Shown here piece after piece: positions 2,466 to 50,578 of a DNA stretch of 64,000 nt. Position numbers and translations under genes: made by a program. Within the stretch, counting starts at the first letter, position 1. Every line of letters starts with the position of its first letter. Source of the stretch: Candidatus Babelota bacterium (GTDB taxonomy: Bacteria > Babelota > Babeliae > Babelales > JACPOV01). The stretch is from assembly GCA_022707425.1 (NCBI GenBank), contig JAKJAQ010000008.1:2498-66497 (forward strand). Reading direction: 5' to 3'. The notes under the pieces are model-generated. The model worked only from the letters and a program-made list of their open reading frames with translations. It did not search any database and was not told where the DNA came from.

Positions 2466-3229
2466 TATTTTTAAATCCAATCATTCTGATTCCATTGCTT
2501 TTATGCTGGGGCTCATTTTTAAATGTAGTTGCTTATCGATTGATTCATGACGGTTCAATTTTTTTTGGTCGTTCTCAATGCATTCATTGTCATCATCAAC
2601 TTGCCTGGTATCACTTAATACCTGTTCTTTCATATATTTTTTTGCAAAAAAAATGCGCTTTCTGCAAAAAAACAATATCGTGGCTTTATCCGTTCATTGA
2701 GCTATTCACCGCCTTGTGCCTTTATTTGATGTTCACGAATGTGCCCGCTCAATTTTGGTTTGGCTATTTTATTTTCTTCTCTGCTTTGATGGTAACCATT
2801 AGAACCGATCTTGAAACATTCATGATTTCTCGATTTGCTACTTTATTTTTATTACCCATTGCTTTTATTCTTTCATATTTGGAATACATCCCATTGAATC
2901 TTGAGCAAGTTATTTTAGGCTGCATAACTGGCTATTTTTTTTTATTAGCAATCTCATCACTCTATTATTGGTTGACCGGACGAGTTGGGATGGGCCAAGG
3001 GGATATTGAACTGCTTTCATTAATAGGTGCATTTTGTGGCATAGAAGGATGGTGGATAACTATTGTTATTGCTTCATCTCTCGGTTCATTATCAGGCATT
3101 ATTTTTTTATTTTGTTCCGGAAAAAAAACAACAAAAATACAAATTCCTTTTGGTCCATTTTTGGCATTCGGTGCCATGAGCTATGTTCTCTGGCAAACAC
3201 CATTAAAATCGTTGTTATTAGCTCTCTAA
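2462..3229 (+). CDS. pilD: prepilin peptidase (A24 family, type IV leader peptidase/N-methyltransferase-like)
   Basis: ATGA overlap with rbfA. N-terminal Cys motif CIHCHHQL...CAFCKK. Multi-pass membrane protein with GQGDIELLSLIG (the GxGDxKL-type aspartyl motif) and PFGPFLAFG near the C-terminus. Confidence 0.85.
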   Translation: MIFLNPIILIPLLLCWGSFLNVVAYRLIHDGSIFFGRSQCIHCHHQLAWYHLIPVLSYIFLQKKCAFCKKTISWLYPFIELFTALCLYLMFTNVPAQFWFGYFIFFSALMVTIRTDLETFMISRFATLFLLPIAFILSYLEYIPLNLEQVILGCITGYFFLLAISSLYYWLTGRVGMGQGDIELLSLIGAFCGIEGWWITIVIASSLGSLSGIIFLFCSGKKTTKIQIPFGPFLAFGAMSYVLWQTPLKSLLLAL

Positions 3230-3796
3230 AGATCGTGTTAAATAATCAGGTTGCTCTGGTAAATCGTAGCACAGCAACGAGCACGACAATTTTTTTTTGT
3301 TTTTCAATTTTTTCTTCCATGTTAAAACGTGCTGATTATCGTTAAGTAATGAATACGCATGTATTAAGTAGCCATACATTCGCCAATCAGCTGCATTAAC
3401 TGGTGAAGAAAAACTTTTCTCAATCAACGAAATTGTCAGTGTAGGATTATGCTGATTAAAAAGCAGATGAACTGCTCCTAAACGATAAGCACTCGTGAAA
3501 TGCGGGTCAAGTTGAGAAATCCAGTTAATCCACGAAATAACATTTTCTACGTTTGCCTTATCAATATTTTGCTGCAAAAAATAAAACCAATGCCAATCGG
3601 CTACCATCATTTTCCATGAACCAAAACATTCAGCATTATACGTTGGACACCGAGCAAAACCTACTTCATTTTCTGGTAACTGTTTCCTAATTAAAAAGAG
3701 TGTTATGGCACACAATACACAATACTGCAATACAACAATCAAACCCGTGATAACTAATTCTTTAAGCCAGATCGTCATTCGTAATTTGAATTTCAT
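3218..3796 (-). CDS. hypothetical membrane-anchored protein, helical-repeat (TPR-like) ectodomain
   Basis: One N-terminal TM (LVITGLIVVLQYCVLCAITLFLI) followed by a helical Trp/Tyr-rich region. Overlaps the 3' end of the pilin gene on the same strand, suggesting co-transcription. No family recognised. Confidence 0.5.
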   Translation of the reverse strand: MKFKLRMTIWLKELVITGLIVVLQYCVLCAITLFLIRKQLPENEVGFARCPTYNAECFGSWKMMVADWHWFYFLQQNIDKANVENVISWINWISQLDPHFTSAYRLGAVHLLFNQHNPTLTISLIEKSFSSPVNAADWRMYGYLIHAYSLLNDNQHVLTWKKKLKNKKKLSCSLLCYDLPEQPDYLTRSLES

Positions 3797-4247
3797 GATG
3801 TTGATTCACAGTTAATCGATCAAGAATACCGTCTCCATCAATATCACCGGCTGCGGCAGCAACAAAGGTAGTCGCATCGGCCTTAGTGTTTCCTAATTCG
3901 CTTGAGCCAGCACCTAACTTGCCAGTAAAACAGCATTGCCCTTCTTGTCCACTAAAGCCATATGTATAATAGAAGCGTTCACTAGAACCACCACCAGCAT
4001 ATCCTTCAGGTTGCCATCCGGCACCATCTTTGCCAGTAAGCATAGTAGTATATTTGCCGTGCTCTGCCCAGTATGCTTTTTCAGCTAAATAGAGGCTACC
4101 TAAATTCATGTACGCTTCAGTTCGTTTTGCCTTTGCTAAAAATCGAAAAAAACTCGGCATTGAAACCATAGATAGGAATGCAACAATTGCAACAACAATC
4201 ATTAATTCAATGAGGGTAAATCCCCCATTACGAGTAACCCACTTCAT
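3762..4247 (-). CDS. type IV pilin / pseudopilin with class III signal peptide
   Basis: N-terminus MKWVTRNGGFTLIELMIVVAIVAFL is the canonical G|FTLIE prepilin cleavage/methylation motif plus hydrophobic helix. The C-terminal region contains GDIDGDGILD. Confidence 0.9.
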   Translation of the reverse strand: MKWVTRNGGFTLIELMIVVAIVAFLSMVSMPSFFRFLAKAKRTEAYMNLGSLYLAEKAYWAEHGKYTTMLTGKDGAGWQPEGYAGGGSSERFYYTYGFSGQEGQCCFTGKLGAGSSELGNTKADATTFVAAAAGDIDGDGILDRLTVNQHHEIQITNDDLA

Positions 4248-10164: not shown

Positions 10165-10376
10165 TTTTTTAAAGTGGAAATTGTTTTTAATAAGCAATGA
10201 CCCACCACCCCATACAATAAAAGATGCACCATTCCTAACAAAAGACCGTACGATGAATTTTTTCCACTCGCAGGTTTGCGCAGAGAATCGTAACATTTTT
10301 GTGCATAATTTTTTTTATTACTCTGTTTGTAAAGTGCAAATGAAAGTATGTGCAATTGTGTATTTAAATCAATCAT
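10161..10376 (-). CDS. hypothetical small protein with C-terminal TM
   Basis: 71 aa. Start overlaps the stop of the upstream 114-aa ORF by 4 nt (10373-10376, ATGA junction), suggesting coupling. Hydrophobic stretch YGLLLGMVHLLLYGVVGHCLL. Weak support. Confidence 0.3.
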   Translation of the reverse strand: MIDLNTQLHILSFALYKQSNKKNYAQKCYDSLRKPASGKNSSYGLLLGMVHLLLYGVVGHCLLKTISTLKN

Positions 10377-10717
10377 TTCACCGAACTGCGCACTCGGAAC
10401 ACCTGTTCAATTGCATTTTCTTTGAAATACCATTGCACGAATTCATTTTCGGGATAATATGAAATTGCTTTCACATTCCCGTAGAAATCTCCACACACCA
10501 CTTGGACAATTCTGTGATTTTTACACATTAAAGAATCTTTCAAAGGCGTAAAGGTGAAAATGTTGATTTCATCAGTTGGAAGTTTATGCAAACGTGTTTC
10601 AATATCGGTTATTTTATGCCTTTTTCGATTGGCTATTATTAGCCGTTGAGGATGTTCCATTCCCTGCATAGAAATAAACTGCACCAAATAAAGGAAAATA
10701 CTATATCGATTGTTCAT
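10373..10717 (-). CDS. hypothetical protein
   Basis: 114 aa. 4-nt overlaps with the ORFs on both sides. No family recognised. Confidence 0.45.
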   Translation of the reverse strand: MNNRYSIFLYLVQFISMQGMEHPQRLIIANRKRHKITDIETRLHKLPTDEINIFTFTPLKDSLMCKNHRIVQVVCGDFYGNVKAISYYPENEFVQWYFKENAIEQVFRVRSSVK

Positions 10718-11252: not shown

Positions 11253-11417
11253 GCCGCTCCTTATACCAAATAAAAATTTGTTCAAATAAATTTTTGCACA
11301 ACAAAAGTCTTAATTACAATATATTTTATCGTGCTTTGTTTGTCTTGATTTACCAAATCAAGGTCGATACAATTTTGAGGCAAATACTATTAAATGCCAA
11401 AAGAATCGGTGCATCTT

Positions 11418-12818
11418 ATGAAAAGTACATTTTTTCTCACTGCAGTTTTCTCATTTTCAGCGTTCGCGATGGAAAATGATAAATTGTCTCAATTTACAAA
11501 CTTAAATCTGAATAATTCAGTAAACAACGAACTAGCAGAATTTAAACAACGAAGAACAACGCTACTCAGTTTGGTTGAAAAGCAACACAAAAAAACTGGA
11601 CCAATTTTGCTTGTTGCTGGATTTGATCAGGAACTTCTTGAATTTGAACAGGAAAAATCATTTTATTATTATACTGGCATTGTGCATCCTGGCCTTACTC
11701 TCATGCTCGAGCAAAATAAATCAAGCATATACGCACCAAAATATTTGAGAGACCCACTGCTATGGACCGATTATTCTGTTGTATCACAAGAAACGGTGCA
11801 AGCGGCAGGAATTGATGAGTTTTTATTTATAGGAAAAGCGATCGAACCAGGATGTACCTCCGCGCTCTGTGACAGTCCAGAACATTATGCAAACTTGATT
11901 TCCAATCTCAAAAAACGCATACAAGAAAAACAAACAATATACTCACTTAACTCAACTTCCGAAGGTCTTTATAACCAGCACATTACCTTTTTAAGAAATT
12001 TGATGAAGCATGTGCCCGGGCTTGAAAGTTCATTGAAAGATATTTCTCCCCTTGTTGCACACATGCGCAGAACAAAATCGGCTCTCGAAATTCAAAAAAT
12101 GGAAGCCTCTATCGCCCTATCAATCAAAGGATTTAATAAAATTGCCCCTAAAATTCGTGACGGCCTTTCTCAGACGCAAATTCGCACAAAAATCGAAAGC
12201 GTTTTTACCGCATGTGGGGCACAACCTGCTTATTATTCCATTGTAGGTTCAGGTGATACTATTCATTATCTACATCCAAAACCAAGTCATTTGGTCAAAG
12301 TAAAAAATGGTGATCTTGTACTTATTGATGCTGGTGCACGGAAAGAATATTATTGTGCAGATTTGACAAGAACCTTTCCTGTCTCCGGCAAATTCACTGA
12401 GCGCCAAAAAGAGATCTATAACCTTGTATTAGCAACGCAACAGCATTTAGCTAATACAGTAAAACCTGGTTTTTATATAAGCAACAGAAAGGAAGCTGAC
12501 AAATCGTTAAATTGTATTGCTAAAACGTTTTTAAAAGAACATGGTGGCTTTGATCACTGTTTGCCTCATGGAGTTAGCCATCATCTGGGCCTTGATGTTC
12601 ATGATCCGGTTACGGATTGGGAAATGGCTCTCAAAGAAGGGGATGTGATCACGATCGAACCGGGAATTTACATTAAAGACGAACAAATCGGCATTCGCAT
12701 CGAGGATAATTATTTGATTACTGAAAATGGTGCACAATGCTTAAGTGCAGCATTACCCAAAACAGTTGAAGAAATTGAAGCCTTAATGCAATCAGGCAAA
12801 AAGAATATGATTCGCTAA
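11418..12818 (+). CDS. pepP: Xaa-Pro aminopeptidase (M24B) with N-terminal signal peptide
   Basis: M24 metal-ligand motifs: LIDAGARKEYYCADLTRTF, HGVSHHLGLDVHD, ITIEPGIY, GIRIEDNYLITENG. N-terminus MKSTFFLTAVFSFSAFA is signal-like. Confidence 0.85.
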   Translation: MKSTFFLTAVFSFSAFAMENDKLSQFTNLNLNNSVNNELAEFKQRRTTLLSLVEKQHKKTGPILLVAGFDQELLEFEQEKSFYYYTGIVHPGLTLMLEQNKSSIYAPKYLRDPLLWTDYSVVSQETVQAAGIDEFLFIGKAIEPGCTSALCDSPEHYANLISNLKKRIQEKQTIYSLNSTSEGLYNQHITFLRNLMKHVPGLESSLKDISPLVAHMRRTKSALEIQKMEASIALSIKGFNKIAPKIRDGLSQTQIRTKIESVFTACGAQPAYYSIVGSGDTIHYLHPKPSHLVKVKNGDLVLIDAGARKEYYCADLTRTFPVSGKFTERQKEIYNLVLATQQHLANTVKPGFYISNRKEADKSLNCIAKTFLKEHGGFDHCLPHGVSHHLGLDVHDPVTDWEMALKEGDVITIEPGIYIKDEQIGIRIEDNYLITENGAQCLSAALPKTVEEIEALMQSGKKNMIR

Positions 12819-12879: not shown

Positions 12880-13269
12880 CTATTTTTTTACAATCAGCTC
12901 AGCAAAGTCATACGAAACTTGAGCCTGCGGGAGTAAAATGGCAGCAATTGCTTGCGATCCGATACCATGTTGCCAACGAACGCCAGCTACATTTTTAAGT
13001 GAAGTGTTAAGGTTGACTAATAATTGATAATTTATTGGTTGGCCGGCTAATGCATATACACCCCAAAATGCACCGGTTGTATCTTGAAAATTGCCAATTT
13101 TGGGCCATCCATTAAGCGGCGGTTGATAAGCTTTGACCACAACTTGTCCATTATTATAGGCCGACATAAAAATGTCGGTAATTGCCACTCTTGGGTCAAC
13201 ATTCATCGCCTTTATTGTTGAAGACGCAGAAAACAACGCGCATAATGCGATTTTGTACATTTTATTCAT
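12880..13269 (-). CDS. hypothetical exported protein
   Basis: 129 aa. Signal-like MNKMYKIALCALFSASSTIKA. No family recognised. Confidence 0.5.
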   Translation of the reverse strand: MNKMYKIALCALFSASSTIKAMNVDPRVAITDIFMSAYNNGQVVVKAYQPPLNGWPKIGNFQDTTGAFWGVYALAGQPINYQLLVNLNTSLKNVAGVRWQHGIGSQAIAAILLPQAQVSYDFAELIVKK

Positions 13270-26354: not shown

Positions 26355-27386
26355 ATGAAAAAAAGAAGAGCCATATTTTATAGTTTATTAACACTTTTGC
26401 TTTTTCTGCAATATCCATTAAAACCAATGGATTTTATAAAAAATATTACGAACGCCAGCGCTAGTACAATCACCCAATCCATCTACTGGGGATCTGCAAT
26501 GTACTATTTATGGTCAACAATGCGTGAACCAAAAGGCACACCTTTAAAAAATGATAGTCCCACGGTCGCCTATTTAAAACAAAAACGTAAGGAATTAGGG
26601 TACCCTGAGTCGCTCGATAATATTAAATTTTACAGTGGCGACGTTCCTTTTTCAGGAAATAACCATATTTATCTACCAATGAATGATGAGCTAATTATCG
26701 CATACTGCTTGAATCCAGATACAATTAAAGATACCGCCAAAGCCCAATCAACTCGTAAAGCAATAGAAAATTTTAAACGTGAACAAAACGAATCGATTGA
26801 AAATTTTGCAAAGAAATCAAATGTTGATGCCGATTCATCTAAAATAATTGCAACTCAATTGTTTGGAAAAGGATCACCAGACGATATGATTCCAACAATT
26901 TGTCATGAATACGGCCATATATATCACAATCATTATCATCAATTTTGGTTAGCTCCATTCATTACATGGACTTGCAGCGAAATCGGAGCACAAGTTTTAG
27001 ATACGCATATTTTTGGTGGCAAAATGCAGGATTATCCGCTCACTACACTTGGTGTCAAATTAGCATGTGCAGCCACTGGCGCAATAGCGCATAGATGGTT
27101 CGCAGAATACCAAGCTGATGGTGAAGTCATTAAAAGAATTAAAAATTCTACATTGCTAGAAAAAGATGCACATCTTTGGCGCGCACTCCATAAATTATCT
27201 GACCAGCAAATAAAACACTACCCCTCTTTGATAAAACCCGCTGCAAAAATTTTATCAAACTGGCAACATCCAAGCGATTTGAGTAGAGCACAACGAATGC
27301 AAAAAGCTGCAAATAACCAAAAAATATATAGCCAACAATTACAACAACAATCATTTCAAAATATCAAAAACGTCCTTGATCGATAA
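26355..27386 (+). CDS. exported putative zinc metallopeptidase (HExxH, M48-like)
   Basis: Signal-like MKKRRAIFYSLLTLLLFLQ. HEYGH at ICHEYGHIYHNH. Downstream WFAEYQADG resembles the M48 third-ligand E..AD motif. Confidence 0.45.
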   Translation: MKKRRAIFYSLLTLLLFLQYPLKPMDFIKNITNASASTITQSIYWGSAMYYLWSTMREPKGTPLKNDSPTVAYLKQKRKELGYPESLDNIKFYSGDVPFSGNNHIYLPMNDELIIAYCLNPDTIKDTAKAQSTRKAIENFKREQNESIENFAKKSNVDADSSKIIATQLFGKGSPDDMIPTICHEYGHIYHNHYHQFWLAPFITWTCSEIGAQVLDTHIFGGKMQDYPLTTLGVKLACAATGAIAHRWFAEYQADGEVIKRIKNSTLLEKDAHLWRALHKLSDQQIKHYPSLIKPAAKILSNWQHPSDLSRAQRMQKAANNQKIYSQQLQQQSFQNIKNVLDR

Positions 27387-29798: not shown

Positions 29799-30251
29799 TT
29801 GAACTTTTGTCTGGCACCACTTTATTATAGTATGCTTATTGGATTTCTCTTAATCGACTTGTGCGCATGGCATTTGTGCGCATTTCCAATTGTACAATTA
29901 GTATGGTGCTTATTTTCCGTTGCACTTTTTTCACAAAGTAGCATTATGCGCCTTTGCATAACATTCACCGTTTTGTGCATGGAACAATTCATTGCCATTG
30001 GTTCATATAAAGAATCAACAGCACTTCTCATGACATCGATTTTATGGATTGTGCCATTTTTGACATTTATTAATCATTCCCTCGAACTTTTTCCCTATGC
30101 ATTCATTATTAGTTCGTTGCTTCTTTTTCGGACCTTTTGTCAACCATTCTGGCTCACTGAATCGACAATTGTGATCTATACAATTATCCAAATTTTTGTT
30201 AATATTATAGGTGTACGAATTCTTTTGAAATATAGATCCAAGGCAATCTAG
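29799..30251 (+). CDS. hypothetical polytopic membrane protein
   Basis: TTG start behind AAGGAGA. About 5 hydrophobic helices. The 3' end overlaps the first nucleotides of rnpB. Confidence 0.5.
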   Translation: MNFCLAPLYYSMLIGFLLIDLCAWHLCAFPIVQLVWCLFSVALFSQSSIMRLCITFTVLCMEQFIAIGSYKESTALLMTSILWIVPFLTFINHSLELFPYAFIISSLLLFRTFCQPFWLTESTIVIYTIIQIFVNIIGVRILLKYRSKAI

Positions 30252-30582
30252 ACAATCGCTTGCTGTTTTAACCAGATGAGCAAGAGGAAAGTCCGGACTC
30301 CAAACGAAAAAAGCACCTTAGAAATTAAGGGGGGCGTAAGCTCATGGAAAGTGCCACAGAAAAAAACCGCCTGTAAAAAGGTAAGGGTGAAAATGTGCGG
30401 TAAAAGCGCACACCTCTTATTAGTAATAATAAGAGTGGGGCAAACCCTGCTTGGAGCAAGACAAAATAGGCACGAACGGTTTTTCGTTCCGGTTATCACG
30501 TGCGGGTATGTCGCCAAGAGAAATGGTTGTCATGTGCATATTCGTATGCACAACAGAATCCGGCTTACTGATTGCCTTTGAT
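30240..30582 (+). ncRNA. rnpB: RNase P RNA (bacterial)
   Basis: Conserved P4 strands GAGGAAAGTCCGG (30284-30296) and ACAGAATCCGGC (30553-30564). GGTAAGGGTGAAAATGTGCGGTAAAAGCGCAC core block. P1 pairing aaggcaatc (30240-30248) / gattgcctt (30570-30578), followed by a T-run. Ends are approximate to within a few nt. Confidence 0.93.
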
Positions 30583-39797: not shown

Positions 39798-40427
39798 ATG
39801 AAAAAGACATTATTTCTACTCATTCATGTCCTAGCTTTTGCGGTTGGCTCGATCAAAGCCATTAATGAAAACTATTCTCCTATTGTTGACAATGAACAAA
39901 ACCTGCCGCCCCGAGCAAATAATACAGAACAGGTCGCAGTAAATCCGTTAGCTAACCAAATTCCCGTAGCTCAGCAACAGCCTAATGGATCCAAGTTTTC
40001 TCGCGATATGGCATCTGCGAAAAAAATGCAAAAAAATCAAACAGAAAGTAAATTTAAATGGCCCAAAAAACAATCATTGGGACATAAGATACTGCAGGAC
40101 AATGCAGATCAGCAAAAAACTAAAGAACAATTAGAAGAACTGAGCAGAGTTTTGCAACAAAGAATGAACCGAAATACAATGATAAATAATTACAAGTATT
40201 TACAACATCGCAAAAATATTGATCTTACAAAAAATCCAGATGATGAAAAAAAATTTAATAAGCTGCCCCCAAAAGCACAACAAAATCTTATCAATAAGCA
40301 TGGCATTATAACCAAAGAAGTAAAACGCGAGAAAGCAAGAAATCGTGTTGCATTCGCTATTGTTGGAACTGCGATCTTTGCGATATATAAATGCTTTGGT
40401 GATTTGCGTGGTATATTTTCTGAATAA
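39798..40427 (+). CDS. hypothetical protein, N-terminal signal plus C-terminal TM
   Basis: Signal MKKTLFLLIHVLAFAVGSIKA. Gln/Lys-rich middle. C-terminal TM VAFAIVGTAIFAIYKCF. Confidence 0.5.
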   Translation: MKKTLFLLIHVLAFAVGSIKAINENYSPIVDNEQNLPPRANNTEQVAVNPLANQIPVAQQQPNGSKFSRDMASAKKMQKNQTESKFKWPKKQSLGHKILQDNADQQKTKEQLEELSRVLQQRMNRNTMINNYKYLQHRKNIDLTKNPDDEKKFNKLPPKAQQNLINKHGIITKEVKREKARNRVAFAIVGTAIFAIYKCFGDLRGIFSE

Positions 40428-40433
40428 TATTTT

Positions 40434-41147
40434 CTATTGTCCGGCACCTTTATCTACCGCTTCATTTTTATTTTGTTCAGAAAGTTTTTTTACATTTTCA
40501 AAGAAATTCACAATTCCCTGGGCATTATTATATTTTTCAACATTATACTTGTTTCTTGACTTAAATTCAGAAATATTCTCAGGTAAATCCGCTACCGCTT
40601 TTCCTATGCTACTAAAAGATATAATTCCAGCAACAAATGCCCCAAGTCTCATGAGCGGATTATCAAAGTAACTATGTGCTTTATGACATACATAAGTTGA
40701 TGCAATCGAAATTCCTAATCCAGCGAATATGTTTGCAAATCCAACTGTTCGCTCATAAAGCAACTCTTTTTTTCTTTTTTTTAATTCATCTGCCGCAAAC
40801 TCATTATAGCTTTCATTATTTTCCAATGTTTTTAAAAAAGATCCTATTTGATCAAGCTGTTCACTTAAAATTTCATTACGCGCAACAGTAATTTTTTTAT
40901 TGTTTGTACACAAAAAATCGATCGTTTTATAATTAATTTTAGTTGTAGTAATTAATTTATATTTAAATTCTTCCAATTTAGCTTCTTGAATTAAACATCG
41001 TATATCAACAAAATCTTGAGGTTTGAATTTAATTACCGAATCATTCTTAAATAATGGATAAGTGTCATTCTCCATTGCTCCACATTGTAAAAAATTAAGC
41101 ACAACGAGCAACATTAAACACGATTGTTTCAGATTTATTATTTTCAT
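40434..41147 (-). CDS. hypothetical exported/membrane protein
   Basis: Start taken at MKIINLKQSCLMLLVVLNFLQCGA (ATG 41147). Two hydrophobic helices near residue 150-200. No family recognised. Confidence 0.5.
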   Translation of the reverse strand: MKIINLKQSCLMLLVVLNFLQCGAMENDTYPLFKNDSVIKFKPQDFVDIRCLIQEAKLEEFKYKLITTTKINYKTIDFLCTNNKKITVARNEILSEQLDQIGSFLKTLENNESYNEFAADELKKRKKELLYERTVGFANIFAGLGISIASTYVCHKAHSYFDNPLMRLGAFVAGIISFSSIGKAVADLPENISEFKSRNKYNVEKYNNAQGIVNFFENVKKLSEQNKNEAVDKGAGQ

Positions 41148-41256
41148 GCCGTACCATTTCTTGAAATTGAATTTTTTTTTAAACAGCGCATACATTCTTT
41201 ACTTACATACTCTCACTATATTAACGTGAAACAAAAAATATAGGGAGAATTTTTAT

Positions 41257-42558
41257 TTGAATAACTATTTTTATTTTTTTATTTTAATTCTGAATTTTTT
41301 TTGCACACTGCATTCATCACATCATGAACAAATGTCAATACACGATCGTACTCTTGATGATTTAACACCCAGCAATCATTCAAATCAGCACATGATGCAC
41401 GGAATGTATGGGCGTTATCCAATGGAACGAGAAATTTCTGGCACCGATTGGCAACCAGAATCAATTCCGATGGATGGTCTTCATTACATGCACAATGAAT
41501 GGTTGTTCATGACGCACGATTTTATCAATGCAGCATTTACACACCAAAGCGGCCCGCGCGGCGGAAATCAAATTTTTAGCACAAGCATGTTCATGGCAAC
41601 TGCACAGCGCGATTTTGGTGAACATTACACATTTGCTGCGCGCACAATGTTCTCACTCGATCCATTAAACGGAAAAAAAGGGTATCGATTACTGTTACAG
41701 ACTGGTGAAACAGCAGATGGTGTTACGCCGCTTATTGATCGGCAACATCCACACGAGCTTGTTGATGAGCTTGCGGTAGTACAAACTATAATGATCAATA
41801 AACACAGTTCAATTTTTTTTTATTTTGGATTACCTGGTGAACCTGCACTTGGCCCGCCAGTGTATATGATGCGTTACAGTGGCACATATAACCCTGAAGC
41901 ACCAATCAGTCACCATTGGCTTGATTCAACGCATGTTCAATTTGGTGTTTTTACGGTTGGTTATGTTTGGCGCATGCTCAAAATTGATGCTTCGGTATTT
42001 ACTGGACGCGAACCAGATCAGCATCGCTACGATTTTGAATGTCCACGTTTTGATTCATTTTCAATTCGTGCAACGGCAAATCCAACCCCCGATCTTTCAA
42101 TGCAATTGAGTATTGGTTTTTTAAAATCACCAGAACAGTTAGAGCCCGATGTTAATATTACACGCACAACCGCCTCATGTATCTATAACATTTTGAGAAA
42201 TCGGTTGAAGTGCCAAATAACCGGATGCTGGGGTCTCAATAAAAAACATCCTGGTACCACGACAAACGCATTATTATTAGAAACAACCGTTGATCTTCAT
42301 GATAAACATTATTTTTTTGGTCGCACAGAATTCGTGCAGAAAGATGAATTGTTTGCGCCACCCGATCCACGATTTTCACAAATTTTTAACGTGGGTAAAT
42401 TAACACTTGGTTATATTTATCAATTGGTAGTGTGCCATCATGTTGAATTTGGCATCGGCGCATTAGGTTCTGTTATTTTTATACCTCACGATTTAGTCGA
42501 AAGTTACGGAAAGAATCCGCTTTCTGGAACAATCTTTCTACAAATGCGAATTGTGTAA
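41257..42558 (+). CDS. putative outer-membrane protein with His/Met-rich N-terminal segment
   Basis: TTG start behind AGGGAGA. Signal-like NNYFYFFILILNFFCTL. Then HSSHHEQMSIHD...HSNQHMMHGMYGRYPME. Conserved-looking LLLQTGETADGVTPLIDRQHPHE. Beta-rich C-terminal part. Confidence 0.55.
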   Translation: MNNYFYFFILILNFFCTLHSSHHEQMSIHDRTLDDLTPSNHSNQHMMHGMYGRYPMEREISGTDWQPESIPMDGLHYMHNEWLFMTHDFINAAFTHQSGPRGGNQIFSTSMFMATAQRDFGEHYTFAARTMFSLDPLNGKKGYRLLLQTGETADGVTPLIDRQHPHELVDELAVVQTIMINKHSSIFFYFGLPGEPALGPPVYMMRYSGTYNPEAPISHHWLDSTHVQFGVFTVGYVWRMLKIDASVFTGREPDQHRYDFECPRFDSFSIRATANPTPDLSMQLSIGFLKSPEQLEPDVNITRTTASCIYNILRNRLKCQITGCWGLNKKHPGTTTNALLLETTVDLHDKHYFFGRTEFVQKDELFAPPDPRFSQIFNVGKLTLGYIYQLVVCHHVEFGIGALGSVIFIPHDLVESYGKNPLSGTIFLQMRIV

Positions 42559-42707
42559 GAAAATGGGTGGAAACCATCCAAAAAAGTTGTTATCATTATA
42601 ATTAATAGTGGCACTTTTCCATCAACTTCGTGCTATTTGCACATTATGCGCACAAAAAAAGTGAAAAAGGAGCTCTAGTAACCCAAAAAACGGCCATTTT
42701 TTGCACT

Positions 42708-43994
42708 ATGAAAAAGAAAAATTTACTTTTTACCATGATTTTAGCTTGCACATCATTAGTTGTGCCATTGCATTGTACCGAATTTGCAACTCCTGAACGG
42801 CGCGAAAAATGGTTTACCATTTTTGTTCATGGTATTATCAGTGTTAAACCTCATCTGAATGTACCTAATATTATTAAACTTATGCGCGATGATATTGCCA
42901 ATTCGGTCTACGCACGTGCCGTTGAAATTATGCGAAAAGATGACTTTTTTTATAAATATCACGCGATGCAAGAGGTCGGGTTACTTCCTGTTGATATCAA
43001 TTCAACCAAGCCAGGTGCCGCTGCATCGGTTTTTGCGCGCACTTTTGACACAGTTGCCAAATTTGCAAACCCTGAGATGCCAAAACAGGAATATTACACG
43101 TTCGGCTGGTCAGGCCTGTTGAGCCAATTCATGTGGAATCTGGAAGCGGAAATTTTTTACAAAAAATTGGATGAATTAGTAGCAACAACGCGAGCGCAAG
43201 GATATGAACCACGCATCCGCATGGTTGGCTACAGCCATGGTGGCACGTTTGCACTCCATTTGGCGCATTTTGATACCGGTTCATTTGCGATCGACGAAAT
43301 GTGGCTTATTGGTGTTCCAGTATTGCCAGGAGCCTATGACCTTATTAATAGACCATTTTTTAAAAAAATTGACCATTTTTATTCATACGGCGATCGTGTT
43401 CAACCACTTGATTGTTTTGGCCTCAACAGATTTTTTTCAGATCGTGTTTTTTCGCCAACTTCAAAAAAACCACTGCCTGCAAAATTAACTCAAATTCAGA
43501 TGAAATTTCGCCGACCTGTATTTGCGCATAAAACATGCCCTATTCATAAAAATGGTTGCACCAAAATTAACCGATCACGCATGCGAAATGCCGATCCGGG
43601 TCACACAGAACTGTGGTCATTTGGCTGGTCACCAGCAAGTTATCGCAGCAATTTCCCATTGCATCCACTTCCTGCGACCGTGTGCTTACCATTTTTTGCT
43701 CAAACAATTGCAAACGAACGTTTGCTTGGTAGCCATGCATCAATCGAAGTTTATTCAAATCACGAATTTATGGTAATTAGTAGCAATAAGTTGAAAAAAA
43801 CAATCCAAGTGCCTTTTTTACCTGACTATTTACTCTCTGCGCTTAAAGATGATGCATTAGCATGCAGACCAGATAATTATCATCCACAGCTTTATAGTGA
43901 GAAAGTGCAACAGGCAATTGTTCATGCGCAAAAAGATCATGATCATGAAAAAAAATTAATGCGCACTAAGCATTCAGCTTATCCCACAAACTAA
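42708..43994 (+). CDS. exported alpha/beta-hydrolase (lipase/esterase-like)
   Basis: Start taken at MKKKNLLFTMILACTSLVVPL (ATG 42708). IFVHGI oxyanion-type motif and nucleophile elbow VGYSHGG (GxSxG). Confidence 0.55.
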   Translation: MKKKNLLFTMILACTSLVVPLHCTEFATPERREKWFTIFVHGIISVKPHLNVPNIIKLMRDDIANSVYARAVEIMRKDDFFYKYHAMQEVGLLPVDINSTKPGAAASVFARTFDTVAKFANPEMPKQEYYTFGWSGLLSQFMWNLEAEIFYKKLDELVATTRAQGYEPRIRMVGYSHGGTFALHLAHFDTGSFAIDEMWLIGVPVLPGAYDLINRPFFKKIDHFYSYGDRVQPLDCFGLNRFFSDRVFSPTSKKPLPAKLTQIQMKFRRPVFAHKTCPIHKNGCTKINRSRMRNADPGHTELWSFGWSPASYRSNFPLHPLPATVCLPFFAQTIANERLLGSHASIEVYSNHEFMVISSNKLKKTIQVPFLPDYLLSALKDDALACRPDNYHPQLYSEKVQQAIVHAQKDHDHEKKLMRTKHSAYPTN

Positions 43995-44745
43995 GCAAAT
44001 CGTTCATGCTCATTTGCTGAGCTCGCAACGCAAGTGTTGTTTCAGAGATCTTAGTTAAATCAAAATGTGTTTGCTGTAAATTGTTTTTCAATGTTCGTCT
44101 TGGTTGCTTAAAACACAATTTAATGAACTGCCAAAATTCTTCTTCATTTTTAATTGGCTGCACTGATTGCTTAGGCTTAAAATATAAAAGACGAGAATCT
44201 ACTTTTGGCGGTGGTTCAAAAGCTTGTGGTGGAACTTTATCAAGCTTTTTCCATTCAAAATAGTGTTGAAAAAAAAGTGATGGGTAACCATAGCCCCGCC
44301 CATGCGTTTTTAAAATTTTTTCAGCTACTTCTTCTTGAATCATTATTACTCCCTCTTTAAGCACCGCTCTATTTTTGTGCAGCATGTGCAAAATAGGAAA
44401 AGTAATTTGATAGGGTAAATTGGCTAGTAATGTCCACGGTTTATGTTCATCAAATCGTGCCCAATCAACATCCAAAATATTTTCTTGAAAAATGGTCATA
44501 CGTAAATCGGCATATTTTTTTTCAACAAATCGTGCCCAATCAGCATCAATTTCAAAAACCCACAATCTCTTTATTGGTTGCTGCAAAATTGATCGTGTTA
44601 AAAAACCATCACCACACCCAATTTCAAAAACGGACGAATTTTCATCAAGTATAACATTGGCCACCATGTGATCAATCACCGCTTGCCAACGCAAAAAATG
44701 CTGCCCATACATTTTTTTAACTGCTATGCCTTCGACAAATACCAT
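43966..44745 (-). CDS. rsmA: 16S rRNA (adenine1518/1519-N6)-dimethyltransferase
   Basis: GQHFL, VFEIGCGDGFLT (SAM motif), ANLPYQITFPIL. Confidence 0.9.
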   Translation of the reverse strand: MVFVEGIAVKKMYGQHFLRWQAVIDHMVANVILDENSSVFEIGCGDGFLTRSILQQPIKRLWVFEIDADWARFVEKKYADLRMTIFQENILDVDWARFDEHKPWTLLANLPYQITFPILHMLHKNRAVLKEGVIMIQEEVAEKILKTHGRGYGYPSLFFQHYFEWKKLDKVPPQAFEPPPKVDSRLLYFKPKQSVQPIKNEEEFWQFIKLCFKQPRRTLKNNLQQTHFDLTKISETTLALRAQQMSMNDLLSLWDKLNA

Positions 44746-44872
44746 GAAATCCTTTTGTAATCTTGAAAATCAAAATCAGCCAATATATACTAATAGTAAA
44801 TAATTGAAAAACTAAAAATTGTTGGTTTACCATATAAATTATACCATAAACGACAAAAAAAACAGGTCAGGT

Positions 44873-45889
44873 ATGAAGTTTTCAAAAATTTGTTATTTTA
44901 TAACTTCATTCTTTATCCTAATGAGTTCGCTGTATCTACAAGCGATGGAATATGAACAAGAAAATAATGAGTTCATATTAAGCTCTTCATCAAGTGATAA
45001 AGAAGAATCTATTGATCAAGAAAACAGCGATCAAAATAAATTACAAAAAAAAATAAGCTCGACGCTCAAACAAATCCGTAATAACACTCACTCACTTGTA
45101 CTATCATTTAATAAAAAAGAAAATCCGGACACGATCGCAAATAAAATTGCACGTAATGACACGTTAAATGCCCAGGCGCTTGTGCTTATTGATCAATTAA
45201 ATAAAACACCCACGATAAGCGATAATTATAAATTTCAGATAAAAAAACATCACGATGAACTTCGCGCACTTATGAAAAATTCATTCGTTGCTCCACTTGA
45301 GACACTAAAATCACAACTTCATATTATTAATCTTAAAAATATTATTATTGATAATGTACAAGTTCAAGATACTGATAGCACCAAAAGCATTGAAAAAGAA
45401 GTCGACAATTATCTTTCAACCTATTTTAATAATCTCCTTGATGATTCAAATTACGTAGCGCATATCTATTTAAACTTAATAAATAAATATGAAGTAATTA
45501 TTGGACAAGTTGCTTCTCGCATAGGAAAAGGCCAAGAAAATATAACACAAAAAATGATACAAACTAATAAACCACTACAGGCACTTTTACAAAAATTTGA
45601 AGATGCAATTGATTTTGGCACATTGGCTGAAAAATATTTGAGCCACTATCATTTGCAGCCAAAGACGCAATTAAAGCAAGACCACACGCAATTAACATTT
45701 GATCTTGCTCAGCAAATTGAAAAAATTGATCCCAACGCACTCGTTCGCAATAGTGTCAGAAACCGTGAAAAGCAAGAATACTATGCTCAAAAAACTCATT
45801 TATGGGAGATTTTTATTAATCAATCTCCAAAAAAGAAAAATCTTATTAAACAAATAAAAGAAAATAAAAAAGGAATGGTGCTACCATGA
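44873..45889 (+). CDS. exported helical protein, tandem paralog 1 of 3
   Basis: Signal MKFSKICYFITSFFILMSSLYLQA, acidic tract, helical body with SNYVAHIYLNL and AIDFG motifs shared with the next two genes, and a Lys-rich tail. Confidence 0.65.
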   Translation: MKFSKICYFITSFFILMSSLYLQAMEYEQENNEFILSSSSSDKEESIDQENSDQNKLQKKISSTLKQIRNNTHSLVLSFNKKENPDTIANKIARNDTLNAQALVLIDQLNKTPTISDNYKFQIKKHHDELRALMKNSFVAPLETLKSQLHIINLKNIIIDNVQVQDTDSTKSIEKEVDNYLSTYFNNLLDDSNYVAHIYLNLINKYEVIIGQVASRIGKGQENITQKMIQTNKPLQALLQKFEDAIDFGTLAEKYLSHYHLQPKTQLKQDHTQLTFDLAQQIEKIDPNALVRNSVRNREKQEYYAQKTHLWEIFINQSPKKKNLIKQIKENKKGMVLP

Positions 45890-46968
45890 AAAAGCTAAAT
45901 TATTCATTTATATTATTACCGGTTAGTTCTTTATCGTTATTTTTTCTGCTCACGTTCATGATTAATTTAATCATAATGCCAAATAGTTGGTGTATGGAAC
46001 AACCGCAAGAAATTGAACTATCACAAGGTGACACAGAAGAATCTTCTGAAGAACGAGAAGAAGTAAGTAATGAAGAACAACTTGATACGCTTATTGAAAA
46101 AATGCAGCTTGCAGGTACCCAATTGGTCGAGGCTATAAAAAATAAAAAGCACTTTCAAGAAATACAACGAGCATATGCTCTTCAAAAAAAATTATCAGCT
46201 GCCGCCGAAAATCTCATTGCTAAATTGCAAGAAACACCTACAGCTAACCTTAAAACTTTAATAAGCCAATTTAAACAAGCAAAAATGAAATTTAGCGGTC
46301 AACTAAAAAGTCCTCTTTTTATCCTTAATGAAGCATTGCAACCCGAGACCGTAAAAGCGATACTTGGATCAACAATGAAAAGCACAAAGGAAGAGGACAT
46401 AGCAAGAGCACTTGAAGGGTATTATAACCATCAGTTGTATAACGCAAATTATGCAGCTCTCATTTATTTAACTCTCCTTGAAGACAATAACACCCTTATT
46501 CAAGAAATTGTTGACGAAGATGATGCAATAGCAAAGCAAAAACTTGAAATCGATAAGATAAAAAACAACGAAGAACGACTGTTGGAAATGTCAATTCTTG
46601 ATGAGCGAAAATCTGACCTCAATGCCAAAAGAAATCTGCTTATTCCACTTTTAAGATCATTAGAGACAGCTTTAGATTATGGAAACAAAGCACAGTCCTT
46701 GATGAAAAAACAAAGCATAGCTGTAGACTCGCGCTTCGCAAACGATCAAGCACAATTATCTCAAAAGTGGAGTAATTATTATAAAAAAATAGATCCTGAA
46801 TCCCTAGAAGCTGGATCAGCTAAAAATGAAGCATTACGACAAGAATGGGCGCGACAAGCACTGAAGTTATCTGAAACAGTAAAAAAGACACCCGAACGAA
46901 AAGGTAGCGTAAAAGATATTCAAAAATTAATAAAAGAAACAAAACTTAAAGAATCTCAAAAGAAATAA
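45886..46968 (+). CDS. exported helical protein, tandem paralog 2 of 3
   Basis: ATGA overlap with paralog 1. Hydrophobic N-terminus, acidic tract, ANYAALIYLTL, ALDYG and KKIDPESL matching paralog 1, and a Lys-rich tail. Confidence 0.65.
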   Translation: MKKLNYSFILLPVSSLSLFFLLTFMINLIIMPNSWCMEQPQEIELSQGDTEESSEEREEVSNEEQLDTLIEKMQLAGTQLVEAIKNKKHFQEIQRAYALQKKLSAAAENLIAKLQETPTANLKTLISQFKQAKMKFSGQLKSPLFILNEALQPETVKAILGSTMKSTKEEDIARALEGYYNHQLYNANYAALIYLTLLEDNNTLIQEIVDEDDAIAKQKLEIDKIKNNEERLLEMSILDERKSDLNAKRNLLIPLLRSLETALDYGNKAQSLMKKQSIAVDSRFANDQAQLSQKWSNYYKKIDPESLEAGSAKNEALRQEWARQALKLSETVKKTPERKGSVKDIQKLIKETKLKESQKK

Positions 46969-47000
46969 TGCATAGACCTAAAAAATAGGTATACTTACTC

Positions 47001-47036
47001 ATGCGGCGGGAAAAGTTTCTCGCCGCATTTTTTTTC
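47001..47036 (+). terminator. Rho-independent terminator
   Basis: atgcggcg (47001-47008) pairs with cgccgcat (47021-47028), followed by tttttttt. Confidence 0.8.
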
Positions 47037-47070
47037 CTTAACCTACTCTACCTATTTCAAAAGGATTTCT

Positions 47071-47904
47071 ATGAATTATCGCTCTTTGTTATTTTTAATG
47101 ACTGCTTGTTCAACCTTACTGAATGCAATGGATTATAAGGAATCTGAAAATCAAAAGAAAAAAATGATCAACGAAGGTGCACAGTTAGTTACGCAAGCCA
47201 TAACTCATGTTCATCAACTTAAACACACCGATAATTGGAGAATTTTGACAAACCTTACTCAAGGAGTTGATATCGTTTGCTCAAAGTTGCATCATACTCA
47301 AGGTATTGAAGCCCATCCAAATGAAGTAAAACAAGTTATTTTAGCAAAAGCGAAATTTGATAAAGCAGTTCGCATAAAAAGTGATGGTGCATACAGTGTT
47401 CTCCGCTCAAGAATTGAAAAAAATGAATTGGCATTTATTGCCAATATTGCTTTTCAAACCACGTTTGCTTCCAACTACGTGGCCGATTATACAGAAGACC
47501 TTATTTGCAAAGAAGCGTTGCTTAGAAAGGCCTGGATCGCGCTTGGTTTGTATAGTACTGCTGTAGCTAAACAAAATAAATATAATTCACTTCATTCACA
47601 AACTGCTACCGATTACGCTCTTCTTTCTCATGTGACCGAAGAGCTTATAAAGAAAAACTTTGATAAATTTGATTGGACTGAACAACATACACTTGAAAAT
47701 AATGATCTAAATATAACTTATTACACCCCAGCGCCTAAAAATACAAATGCAAGTGCACCCCGTGAAGGGAGAATTGCAAAATTAATGCGCAAGCTTACTC
47801 AATCAAAAATAGAGACTCTTGAATCAAAAAAAGAAGAAAATAATAATAATAATCTTAAAAAGTCTTTATCGATGGATGGAATGAATAAATTCGCCAAAAA
47901 ATAA
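47071..47904 (+). CDS. exported helical protein, tandem paralog 3 of 3 (most diverged)
   Basis: Signal MNYRSLLFLMTACSTLLNA. SNYVADYTEDL motif at the equivalent position. Lys/Asn-rich tail. Confidence 0.6.
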   Translation: MNYRSLLFLMTACSTLLNAMDYKESENQKKKMINEGAQLVTQAITHVHQLKHTDNWRILTNLTQGVDIVCSKLHHTQGIEAHPNEVKQVILAKAKFDKAVRIKSDGAYSVLRSRIEKNELAFIANIAFQTTFASNYVADYTEDLICKEALLRKAWIALGLYSTAVAKQNKYNSLHSQTATDYALLSHVTEELIKKNFDKFDWTEQHTLENNDLNITYYTPAPKNTNASAPREGRIAKLMRKLTQSKIETLESKKEENNNNNLKKSLSMDGMNKFAKK

Positions 47905-47916
47905 TTTATACAACTA

Positions 47917-48954
47917 TTATTTCAATAGCGCTTCTTTGAAAAAATCAAGTTGCTCGAGAACTTTGCCCGCTCCCATAACAACACAAAGGAGCGGGTTTTC
48001 TGCAAGCGTTACCCGCAATCCCGTTTCCTTTGAAATTAATTGAGCAAGTCCACGTAATAATGAACCACCACCGGCCATCACAATTCCTTTATCAACTAAA
48101 TCTGATGACAATTCTGGCGGTGTATTTTCAAGAGCAACACGCACAACATCAACTATGGTAGCAATTGTTTCTAATAATGATTCATGAACTTCGGCGCTCG
48201 TGAGCACGATTGTTTTTGGAACACCAGTTACTAAATCACGCCCTTTGACTTCCATTGTTTCAGCATTTGAATCAGGCATAACTGAACCAATTTGAATTTT
48301 AATTAATTCAGCCGTTCGTTCACCAATCAATAAATTGTATTTACGTTTTACATATTGAACAATTGCGCGATCCATTTCGTCGCCGCCAACACGCACCGAA
48401 CGGCAAAACACCACATCTTTGAGCGCAATGACCGCAACTTCAGTGGTACCGCCACCAATATCAACAATCATGCTGCATGATGGATCTTGTACTGGAAGGC
48501 CAGCGCCAATTGCCGCCGCCATTGGTTCCATAATAGTATACACTTCACGCGCACCAGCTTGTTTTGCTGAATCTTCAACTGCGCGACGTTCAACTTGTGT
48601 AATTCCTGAAGGAACACCAATAATCATTCGTGGACTGATCATCATACGGCGATTACCGTGCACTTTTCTGATAAAATAACGCAGCATGCTTTCAGTTAAT
48701 TCAAAATTTGCAATCACCCCATCACGCATTGGACGGCATGCAACAATACTTTCTGGCGTTTTGCCAAGCATCTCTTTTGCACCTCTACCTGCTGCGAGAA
48801 CTTCATTAGTTTTTGCATTAATTGCAACAACTGATGGTTCATCAAGCACAATACCGCGATTGCGTACATATACTAATGTATTAGCTGTACCCAAATCAAT
48901 TGCAAGATCGGTTGAGAAGTAACTGAACAATCTTTTTGCAGGAAAAAATCTCAT
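47917..48954 (-). CDS. mreB: rod shape-determining protein MreB
   Basis: Actin-fold motifs DLGTANTLVY, VIGVPSGITQVERRA, IVDIGGGTTEVAVI, GIVMAGGGSLLRGL. Confidence 0.95.
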   Translation of the reverse strand: MRFFPAKRLFSYFSTDLAIDLGTANTLVYVRNRGIVLDEPSVVAINAKTNEVLAAGRGAKEMLGKTPESIVACRPMRDGVIANFELTESMLRYFIRKVHGNRRMMISPRMIIGVPSGITQVERRAVEDSAKQAGAREVYTIMEPMAAAIGAGLPVQDPSCSMIVDIGGGTTEVAVIALKDVVFCRSVRVGGDEMDRAIVQYVKRKYNLLIGERTAELIKIQIGSVMPDSNAETMEVKGRDLVTGVPKTIVLTSAEVHESLLETIATIVDVVRVALENTPPELSSDLVDKGIVMAGGGSLLRGLAQLISKETGLRVTLAENPLLCVVMGAGKVLEQLDFFKEALLK

Positions 48955-48980: not shown

Positions 48981-50222
48981 TTAAAAACTAAATAATAAGC
49001 CTAAAGAAATACGCTGCGTTTTGCTCACGTTTTTTGCCGCTAAAACTGAAACTGGCATATCCCACCGCAATTGTGCAATAGGTGCCCACCAATATGGTTT
49101 ACGTACGCGCGCAAAATCATAAAACGCATAGACACTAAAATATTCTGAATTAAAATCTGAAAATTTACGAACTGTTTCAAGTGTTGCCGGTGGCTGTGGA
49201 TCGGTACGCGCATCTTTTATTGAATCACGCAAATGGAAAACAGCGGTGTATACTAATTGACCACCCAGTCCTTCACGAATATCTTCGATGCGAATATAGG
49301 GAGAGAACATAAAAGTAAATCCTGGAGAAACACGCAGATCGCCAACAACTGCACCAAAAAGCGGTTGCTCATTGGCAATTGCAATTCGCTCTTTGAGTGT
49401 TCGTGCAAATCGCTTACTAATACGCACGTTCAATCCTACTTTCCAATCTTCTTTCACCTCAACTTCGGTGTCACCAGCGATATATAAACCAAAAAAACCA
49501 TCGCCACCAAACGGGAGTGATGCTGGATTATTAATTTCTCGTGTCAACCCTGAATTAATAAGCATACCAACGCGGCCACCACAATCAACTCTGCGCAATT
49601 TATATACATATTCCCAAATTTTACCAATACGAGCATACAGATCAATATCTGAAAAACCAACTTTACTAAATTTGGGTGCGTCAAAACCAAGAAACGCTTG
49701 CGTTTGCCTTCTAATTTCATCTAACTGCAATATTTGATCGCTCGTTAACGAAAAACGACGTGCTGTTTCATCTGAAAGTCTAAAATTAATGCGAGAAAAA
49801 AGATGCATAAAAAAAGCGTTACCACCAACCCAAAAATGATCAGTAAATCGATGTTCAAATGAAAATGCAAAACCTTGTGCATCGATAGCACCGCTCATGT
49901 TGTAAATAATTTCGGTCAAATTTAAAAAATCTGGTGAGAGCGGATTTGGATTACCCAATAACACAACGGCATTTGCTAATTTGGTAAAATCGTAGACACC
50001 AAATATTTCAGGAATACCAATTACCGTATCTTCTTCGCGAGTAGCATTGTGTCCCAGAAACACAAACGCATCTCCAGTAAGATAGGTACATTTTTCATTC
50101 GTTCGTGAATAAATATGCGGGTACAATGGAAAATAGCGATTATCATACACCATTGCTCTTAGGCTCGTAACCCAACATATGATGAACGCAGAGAGTAAGA
50201 TTTTTTTTGGCACATGCATCAT
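48981..50222 (-). CDS. putative outer-membrane beta-barrel protein (paralog of 375-1754)
   Basis: Signal-like KKILLSAFIICWVTSLRA. C-terminus RISLGLLFSF ends in Phe. LPFGGDG motif shared with the first ORF of the window. Confidence 0.6.
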   Translation of the reverse strand: MMHVPKKILLSAFIICWVTSLRAMVYDNRYFPLYPHIYSRTNEKCTYLTGDAFVFLGHNATREEDTVIGIPEIFGVYDFTKLANAVVLLGNPNPLSPDFLNLTEIIYNMSGAIDAQGFAFSFEHRFTDHFWVGGNAFFMHLFSRINFRLSDETARRFSLTSDQILQLDEIRRQTQAFLGFDAPKFSKVGFSDIDLYARIGKIWEYVYKLRRVDCGGRVGMLINSGLTREINNPASLPFGGDGFFGLYIAGDTEVEVKEDWKVGLNVRISKRFARTLKERIAIANEQPLFGAVVGDLRVSPGFTFMFSPYIRIEDIREGLGGQLVYTAVFHLRDSIKDARTDPQPPATLETVRKFSDFNSEYFSVYAFYDFARVRKPYWWAPIAQLRWDMPVSVLAAKNVSKTQRISLGLLFSF

Positions 50223-50275
50223 TCGTTTATCATCCCAATTTTTTTTCGATGTGCATCGTTGTTTGCAATTATATA

Positions 50276-50364
50276 TGGAGAGAGAGGGATTCGAACCCCC
50301 GATCCCACGTTAATGGGATAACCGCTTTCGAGGCGGCCGCTTTCGACCACTCAGCCATCTCTCC
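50276..50364 (-). tRNA. tRNA-Ser (anticodon CGA)
   Basis: Reverse complement reads GGAGAGATGGCTGAGTGGTCGAAAGCGGCCGCCTCGAAAGCGGTTATCCCATTAACGTGGGATCGGGGGTTCGAATCCCTCTCTCTCCA. 7-bp acceptor stem, anticodon loop CTCGAAA, long variable arm (class II), GGTTCGAATCC T-loop. CCA is not encoded. Confidence 0.92.
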
Positions 50365-50578
50365 AGCGTATCTTTTTTTCCTCTTTTTATGGCGAGGCTT
50401 GCTCTCTATAATACTCCATTCTCTTTTTTTTTAAAGATTTTTGCTTATTGTTAATCAATACGCGGTGAAAATTGACAATTAAATACGCTCACGTTTAAGC
50501 TTTTGACGATTGGTTCACATAAACAACATCATTTTCAGTAGAAACTCATGAAACATGTATTATAATAAAGGAGCAGGG

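Follow-up and report, generated by a model that had tools for sequence, protein, structure and literature searches.

The window analysed here, a stretch of 64,000 nucleotides from a Candidatus Babelota bacterium (assembly GCA_022707425.1, contig JAKJAQ010000008.1, positions 2,498 to 66,497 of the forward strand), carries between rsmA/ksgA and mreB three consecutive genes on the same strand, A, B and C, whose products have predicted export signals and diverge sharply between otherwise closely similar genomes. Rapid amino-acid turnover and recombinational exchange of whole alleles keep this locus variable. Judged by their sequences, A and B go back to one old tandem duplication; C is an orphan gene of its own, for which no sequence relationship to this pair can be detected. 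We read the three products, with moderate confidence, as Sec-exported, lineage-specific surface or secreted proteins acting at the interface with the host.

The organism belongs to a genus-level lineage within Candidatus Babelota (Dependentiae, TM6), a phylum of obligate intracellular parasites of protists that is widespread and almost uncultured. The window MreB and OQA35408.1, from Candidatus Dependentiae bacterium ADurb.Bin331, have the same sequence, as do the gene A product and BWY54_00591 of that genome; BWY54_00592 and BWY54_00593 share 90% clusters with near-identical copies of B and C. A word-indexed homolog search, which is not exhaustive, returned nothing beyond a near-identical copy for B, and three matches for C; with the A/B profile it returned a single sister-lineage cluster, P0015, an ortholog of A, and the sister-lineage orthologs of B were reached through the contigs of the C matches and their synteny. 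These contigs (L001-L003 and L004 from Logan runs SRR294769xx, L005 from GCA_041907565.1) have the order rsmA, A, B, C, mreB in common. One more locus, L006 (CAZUJC010000001.1, 55151-66885), came from scanning 185,579 species genomes. Its record bears the title "uncultured Pseudomonadota bacterium", but the contig shares the synteny of the window, and the MreB proteins of the two are 99% identical, so that the Pseudomonadota label is probably wrong. Metagenome contigs scanned with the A/B and C alignments, and viral contigs, yielded no loci, and a literature search on the accession numbers gave nothing relevant. An exhaustive hmmsearch with the A/B profile against 1.84 billion cluster representatives gave four proteins, all at E<=6e-44 and none weaker; by this measure the A/B family is confined to one narrow Dependentiae clade. 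The genome-wide count of family members, suggested in a preliminary description of this stretch, comes to two A/B copies per genome, all in that clade and in the same synteny.

Between the window and the lineage of L001, L004 and L006, the flanking proteins are 85-99% identical (MreB 99%, RsmA 89-90%, an outer membrane protein (OMP)-like protein 89-91%); in the same comparison A is 36-38%, B 33-36% and C 44-64% identical, with C at 64% and B at 35% against L001 and L004. The sliding nucleotide identity starts at about 0.85, drops to 0.35-0.6 over precisely the extent of A and B, stands at 0.87 in the spacer between B and C and at 0.66-0.78 in C, and recovers in mreB. Nei-Gojobori ratios of nonsynonymous to synonymous substitution rates (dN/dS) lie at 0.18-0.39 in the three genes and, where divergence is comparable, at 0.01-0.10 in the flanks; in the closest pair the ratio of C reaches 1.3. 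In that pair, the window and L005, A to C together have accumulated 33 nonsynonymous and 19 synonymous changes and five flanking genes 8 and 64 (p=1.3e-9); C alone accounts for 15 nonsynonymous and 3 synonymous ones. Windows with dN/dS >1 cover residues 203-242 of A and 61-120 of C, each with few changes underlying it.

The spacer between B and C forms a conserved island within the variable locus. The segment 46940-47075, which holds the terminator, a ribosome-binding site and the last codons of B, has a mean column identity of 91% across the five loci, and the coding DNA beside it is 35-75% identical; the spacer may act as a regulatory element under constraint, or may anchor recombination.

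Point substitution is not the only process at work, as a comparison of L004 with L006 shows. Here the flanks, A and the signal peptide of B are 97-100% identical; the body of B, starting just past the AMEE junction, drops to 56-80% and C to 45-60%, so that B has a conserved leader, a conserved C-terminal tail and a replaced body. Synonymous sites are saturated in the B body and in C, against a dS of 0.07 in A and mreB, which indicates allele replacement by recombination and not only fast point substitution. The flanks themselves have uneven dS, both between L004 and L006 (rsmA 0.30, mreB 0.07) and between the window and L005 (mreB 0.16, rsmA 0.02), which suggests that recombination is frequent across the region generally, beyond A to C.

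A hotspot of this kind, with its swapping of alleles, speaks for proteins in contact with an external partner that itself changes, be it at the bacterial surface or inside the host. The preliminary description had pointed in the same direction from a local paralog expansion, an overstatement for what is one old duplication, giving A and B, plus the orphan C, with no detectable relationship to them; three independent observations nevertheless lend support to the proposed host or surface role, namely a divergence that is extreme and confined to the locus, a raised dN/dS and the replacement of alleles by recombination.

A and B align by BLASTP at E=8e-14, with 26% identity over 280 residues, and paralog E-values go down to 2e-35 in the sister genomes (L004_A against L001_B). 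About 30 columns are invariant across the eight A/B sequences, among them the motifs N-Y-x-A-x-x-Y-L-x-L, L-L-x-x-L-E-x-A-x-D-[YF]-G and I-x-P-x-x-L. Each related genome holds one ortholog of A and one of B, and the duplication therefore predates the lineage split. For C, all BLASTP pairs with A or B have E>0.2; when the A/B and C profiles are compared by hhalign, the probability is 0.4%, across the signal peptide only; and once the leaders are removed, hmmsearch and hhalign of mature C against A/B find nothing. The earlier reading of three tandem paralogs with motifs in common therefore needs to be divided: the pairwise and profile alignments it proposed give significant similarity for A and B, whose shared motifs (NY.A..YL.L, LL..LE.A.DYG, IDP..L) stand, and none between C and A/B. 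The SNYVADYTEDL of C, which had been counted among these motifs, reads ACDYVADYTENL and SALYLADYTQDE in C orthologs and is not conserved; only Y-[VL]-A-D-Y-T is kept, the "SN" of the window C being CD or AL in the others, and the second A/B motif (L-L-x-x-L-E-x-A-x-D-[YF]-G) is absent from the C orthologs. Neither A/B nor C has internal repeats.

The layout of the locus, three tandem open reading frames (ORFs), is as first described in most respects. On the forward strand, gene A occupies 44873-45889, gene B 45886-46968 (360 residues) and gene C 47071-47904 (277 residues), flanked by rsmA/ksgA to the left (43966-44745, reverse strand) and mreB to the right (47917-48954, reverse strand); the product of A has 338 residues, counted from the ATG at 44873, and not 339. 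This ATG, kept across the loci, is aligned with the ATG starts of all orthologs and is therefore taken as the start. The TTG at 44819 was rejected as a start, this codon not being conserved, and the stretch upstream of the ATG is conserved as non-coding DNA. The Met that follows each leader was likewise discarded as an alternative start, since it lacks a ribosome-binding site in front of it and the leaders show the conservation of coding DNA. The best consensus match of the region to a sigma-70-like promoter (TTGAAA-17-TATACT, 44763-44791, forward strand, 10/12) is a candidate for driving an A-B operon; its -10 element TATACT and the neighbouring bases are unchanged in all five related loci. 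The ATGA overlap between A and B, already noted at 45886-45889, has an AAGGA ribosome-binding site 12 nt upstream; in the sister lineage, which is without this overlap, A and B are separated by 14-16 nt. The B-C spacer (46969-47070, forward strand) contains an AAAGGA ribosome-binding site for C and an intrinsic terminator, as strong as previously judged: a stem-loop at 47001-47028, its 12-bp stem containing 7 GC pairs, and behind it a T run that extends to about 47036, nearly invariant across all five loci. At 0.32-0.35, the G+C content of the three genes is low (about 0.38 for comparison). An Rfam search gave no match in the locus. With intact ORFs, conserved expression signals and dN/dS below 1, A, B and C are real genes.

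All three products begin with a leader that by inspection and simple hydropathy rules has the features of a Sec/signal peptidase I substrate: a basic n-region (the leaders start MKFSK in A, MKK in B and MNYRS in C), a hydrophobic h-region and a small residue at position -1, where the orthologs retain A, G, S or C. In A the predicted signal peptide comprises residues 1-24 (44873-44944), with cleavage between LQA and MEY; after it come an acidic, Ser-rich tract, a probably helical body and a Lys-rich tail. B has a long hydrophobic leader of residues 1-36 (45886-45993), predicted to be cleaved between SWC and MEQ, then an acidic tract, a helical body at about residues 60-305 and a Lys-rich tail. 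In C a short predicted signal peptide of residues 1-19 (47071-47127), predicted to be cleaved between LNA and MDY, is followed by a helical body, a low-confidence β-hairpin at 200-222 and a basic tail. The hydrophobic N-termini and Lys-rich tails reported at the outset are found in all three, with tail net charges of +6 to +9; the acidic tract holds for A and B, whose first 40 mature residues carry net charges of -6 and -12, and not for C (+1). This N-terminal linker of the mature proteins is variable, and acidic in A and B. A Kyte-Doolittle scan finds no membrane-spanning hydrophobic segment in any of the mature proteins, the highest 19-residue means being 0.84 in A, 0.78 in B and 1.07 in C.

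Two other classes of exported protein were considered and set aside. A lipoprotein reading fails as there is no Cys at the junction of A or C, and neither the NSWC of B nor the VALC of L001_B is a canonical lipobox; the junction Cys of B is moreover not conserved, L004 and L006 having THA followed by ME. An Inc-like architecture, with a bilobed hydrophobic segment, is ruled out on sequence.

The Met-Glu/Asp junction, first proposed as a feature of the family, also follows the leaders of unrelated exported proteins of the window and so does not distinguish the family. The pattern [AGSC]-M-[EDNV] is enriched 7.3-fold at residues 12-50 of the window proteins (Fisher p=5e-5) and occurs, for example as SAFA/MEND and LRA/MVYD, in an M24 aminopeptidase P homolog, an OMP-like protein, an M48-like peptidase and others; the unrelated genes in question lie at 11394-12818 (+), 40434-41195 (-), 48981-50222 (-), 12880-13269 (-), 10373-10717 (-) and 26355-27386 (+). 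Met at position +1 of a mature protein is unusual, and the junction of a small residue with Met-Glu/Asp may reflect a lineage-specific preference of the signal peptidase or a sorting signal.

No known family or fold accounts for the mature proteins. Scans of A, B and C against Pfam, NCBIfam and PHROGs gave sub-threshold noise only (phage sheath, ParB helix-turn-helix, TCTP, YneA), and sequence searches against the PDB, with single proteins and with profiles, gave no match. The AlphaFold2 (AF2) model of B has a mean predicted local distance difference test score (pLDDT) of 70.5 and a predicted template modelling score of 0.62; its core, residues 60-305, is modelled at a pLDDT of 80-93 as entirely helical, with helices of up to 48 residues. 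The model of C (mean pLDDT 60) has six helices and the low-confidence hairpin, and the body of A is probably helical as well, given its full-length homology to B. At a threshold of E<=0.001, Foldseek matched neither the B nor the C model to any PDB structure, nor the B model to any BFVD entry; at the head of the hit lists stand designed helical repeats, 14-3-3 and tape-measure-like helices, all with template modelling (TM) scores <0.4. Helical bodies, the absence of any known domain and orphan status, all part of the preliminary description, agree with these results: the models of B and C are helical, with A following by homology, the family, PDB-sequence and Foldseek searches are all negative, and profile searches place A/B in no characterised family.

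Taken together, these features would fit the following course of events. A and B would be co-transcribed from the conserved sigma-70-like promoter and, in this genome, translationally coupled through the ATGA overlap; transcription would stop at the conserved intrinsic terminator, behind which C would be expressed separately. Each protein would be made with a Sec-type signal peptide at its N-terminus; signal peptidase I would remove it behind a small residue and so leave Met-Glu/Asp at the new N-terminus, a pattern apparently common to many exported proteins of the organism. What remains would be a short linker and, at the other end, a basic tail, both disordered, with about 200-250 residues of helical body between them. 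This mature form would act outside the cytoplasm, at the surface of the bacterium or, once released, in the host, with a type IV pilus/type II-like machinery or vesicles as possible routes. A prepilin peptidase (A24; 2462-3229, forward strand) and a type IV pilin-like gene (3762-4247, reverse strand) in the window imply that a type IV pilus or type II-like apparatus exists. A and B probably cooperate as a hetero-oligomer, in which the invariant motifs NY.A..YL.L and LL..LE.A.DYG..A may hold together the fold or the A-B contact, and the exposed helical surfaces may meet a changing host partner. There is precedent for such a class in the phylum: in the Dependentiae isolate Chromulinavorax destructans, 44% of the coding sequences have signal peptides and this set is enriched in ORFans, which are regarded as candidate host-manipulation factors exported through Sec (PMC6561590). 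A, B and C, being leader-bearing and clade-specific, fit this class of exported ORFans.

A more specific version, which we consider doubtful although worth stating, is that of a dedicated variation cassette: a heteromeric helical surface or secreted complex of A and B, with C as a separately regulated partner, whose exposed body would be swapped between strains by homologous recombination anchored in constant segments. These anchors would lie in the signal-peptide region and the basic tail, in the invariant spacer between B and C, and in the housekeeping genes on either side.

Several points weigh against the host-interface reading. The leader of C is weakly hydrophobic, with a Kyte-Doolittle mean of 0.87 over 19 residues and 2.0 over 11. 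Export, localisation and host contact are predictions from sequence features, and the route across the outer membrane is conjectural. The A-B hetero-oligomer is postulated solely from paralogy and coupling, and the overlap is missing in the sister lineage. The AF2 models are built on 4-5 sequences, with that of C at low confidence. Finally, dN/dS is below 1 gene-wide, and relaxed constraint alone could explain much of the divergence.

The last point leads to the one serious rival, which is less probable than a role at the host interface but well ahead of the other alternatives: that A, B and C are lineage-specific structural or accessory proteins of the periplasm or envelope, such as scaffolds or helical proteins resembling chaperones, with no host contact, which evolve fast through weak constraint. 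Relaxed purifying selection could give gene-wide dN/dS values of 0.2-0.4; many of the genes nearby have to do with the envelope (mreB, the OMP-like protein of 412 residues ending in LLFSF, a penicillin-binding protein and peptidyl-prolyl isomerase-like proteins); and the basic tail of these soluble helical proteins could serve to bind anionic components of the envelope. Relaxed constraint, however, leaves unexplained the replacement of the B body and of C, by alleles saturated at synonymous sites, between strains that are otherwise 97-100% identical, as well as the 15:3 ratio of nonsynonymous to synonymous changes in C between the closest genomes, and the other envelope genes next door are 89-99% conserved.

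The replaced tract between L006 and L004 also raises the improbable alternative that B and C, or A/B and C, are a cognate interacting pair, such as an exported effector and its partner or neutraliser, obliged to co-vary. This tract spans the B body and C and spares A and mreB, and the conserved B signal peptide, B tail and B-C spacer resemble the arrangement of polymorphic loci built from constant and variable parts. However, for a single recombination event simple adjacency suffices; between the window lineage and L001/L004, C is 64% and B 35% identical, so that co-variation is not general; and the Pfam and NCBIfam scans show no toxin, enzyme or immunity signature.

Very improbable is a tripartite α-helical pore-forming toxin of the ClyA, Hbl, Nhe, AhlABC or SmhABC kind, which would breach a host membrane, and we reject it on hydropathy, fold and homology. 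It is suggested by three adjacent genes with exported, all-helical products of about 340, 360 and 280 residues (in AhlABC and SmhABC, too, the third protein is the smaller one) and by the appearance of AhlB, SmhB, ClyA and AhlC in the Foldseek list of B. These matches, however, are at noise level (E 0.5-1.2, probability <=0.13, TM <=0.15); no HBL- or ClyA-type Pfam or NCBIfam model matches even at E<=1, and there is no PDB sequence match; a hydrophobic head or β-tongue is lacking, the highest 19-residue hydropathy of the mature proteins staying far below membrane-spanning values; and A and B are paralogs to which C has no detectable relationship.

That the ORFs are decaying or spurious, as their very high divergence, low G+C content and lack of homologs outside the clade might suggest, is the least credible alternative, given intact full-length ORFs in all five loci, conserved starts, ribosome-binding sites, promoter and terminator, dN/dS clearly below 1 over long divergence, motif columns invariant between A and B across lineages, and a confident model of the B core.

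What is new here is a very narrowly distributed protein family with a signature of hypervariability and recombination; exported ORFans of Dependentiae were already known, and they are the main unexplored candidates for host manipulation in this phylum. The locus offers a concrete, delimited case, a clade-restricted helical family at the fastest-evolving spot of a conserved neighbourhood, which could be of use as a marker of strain or host range and as a starting point for work on localisation and interactions, but by itself it opens no new mechanism. Should the variation cassette prove true, it would be a determinant of host range or of the evasion of protist defences, and the first antigen-like variation system described for Dependentiae, on a fold without known relatives.

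Some other features of the window may be recorded alongside. A second pair of fast-evolving exported orphans lies at 39798-40427 (forward strand) and 40434-41195 (reverse strand), in no Pfam family; for its protein of 209 residues the identity is 62-75% with the sister lineage and 81% with L005, for that of 253 residues 40-59% and 86%, and the genes around the pair are about 90-99% identical. Three further exported proteins (41257-42558 and 42630-43994 on the forward strand, 48981-50222 on the reverse strand) are 82-92% conserved and belong to no Pfam or NCBIfam family; among them, one of 454 residues has GYSHGG, by eye a putative motif of the lipase/esterase type, and one of 412 residues ends in LGLLFSF, as is typical of outer-membrane β-barrels. 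The window also encodes a class A RNase P RNA (30240-30582, forward strand) and a tRNA-Ser(CGA) (50275-50365, reverse strand).

Among known systems, AhlABC, SmhABC, Nhe and Hbl, with their ClyA fold, are like the locus in that three genes side by side encode exported, all-helical products of comparable size; the locus differs from them in that A, B and C lack a hydrophobic head and any significant similarity of fold or sequence to these toxins, and in that C has no detectable relationship to A and B. A different parallel is offered by Vsp/OspC and VlsE of Borrelia and the VSG of trypanosomes, which are exported helical bundles with fast-diverging surfaces, constant ends and alleles installed by recombination. 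The leader and tail of B, kept between L004 and L006 while the body is replaced, would be the counterpart of this arrangement. Against it stand the lack of a sequence or fold match, the lack of a lipobox or anchor in A, B and C, and the fact that no silent cassette archive is seen, with two A/B-family copies per genome; moreover, those proteins are surface-exposed antigens, whereas the surface exposure of A, B and C is presumed. A third comparison is with the signal-peptide ORFans of C. destructans (PMC6561590). Neither A/B nor C has a demonstrated relative among the C. destructans proteins, the matches of the exhaustive A/B search being confined to one narrow clade; what is shared is the phylum, an N-terminal secretion signal, the lack of recognisable homologs and a presumed role in host manipulation via Sec, predicted in the present case from sequence alone. 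That class has been described statistically (PMC6561590), and the divergence hotspot and recombinational behaviour of A, B and C lie outside its description.

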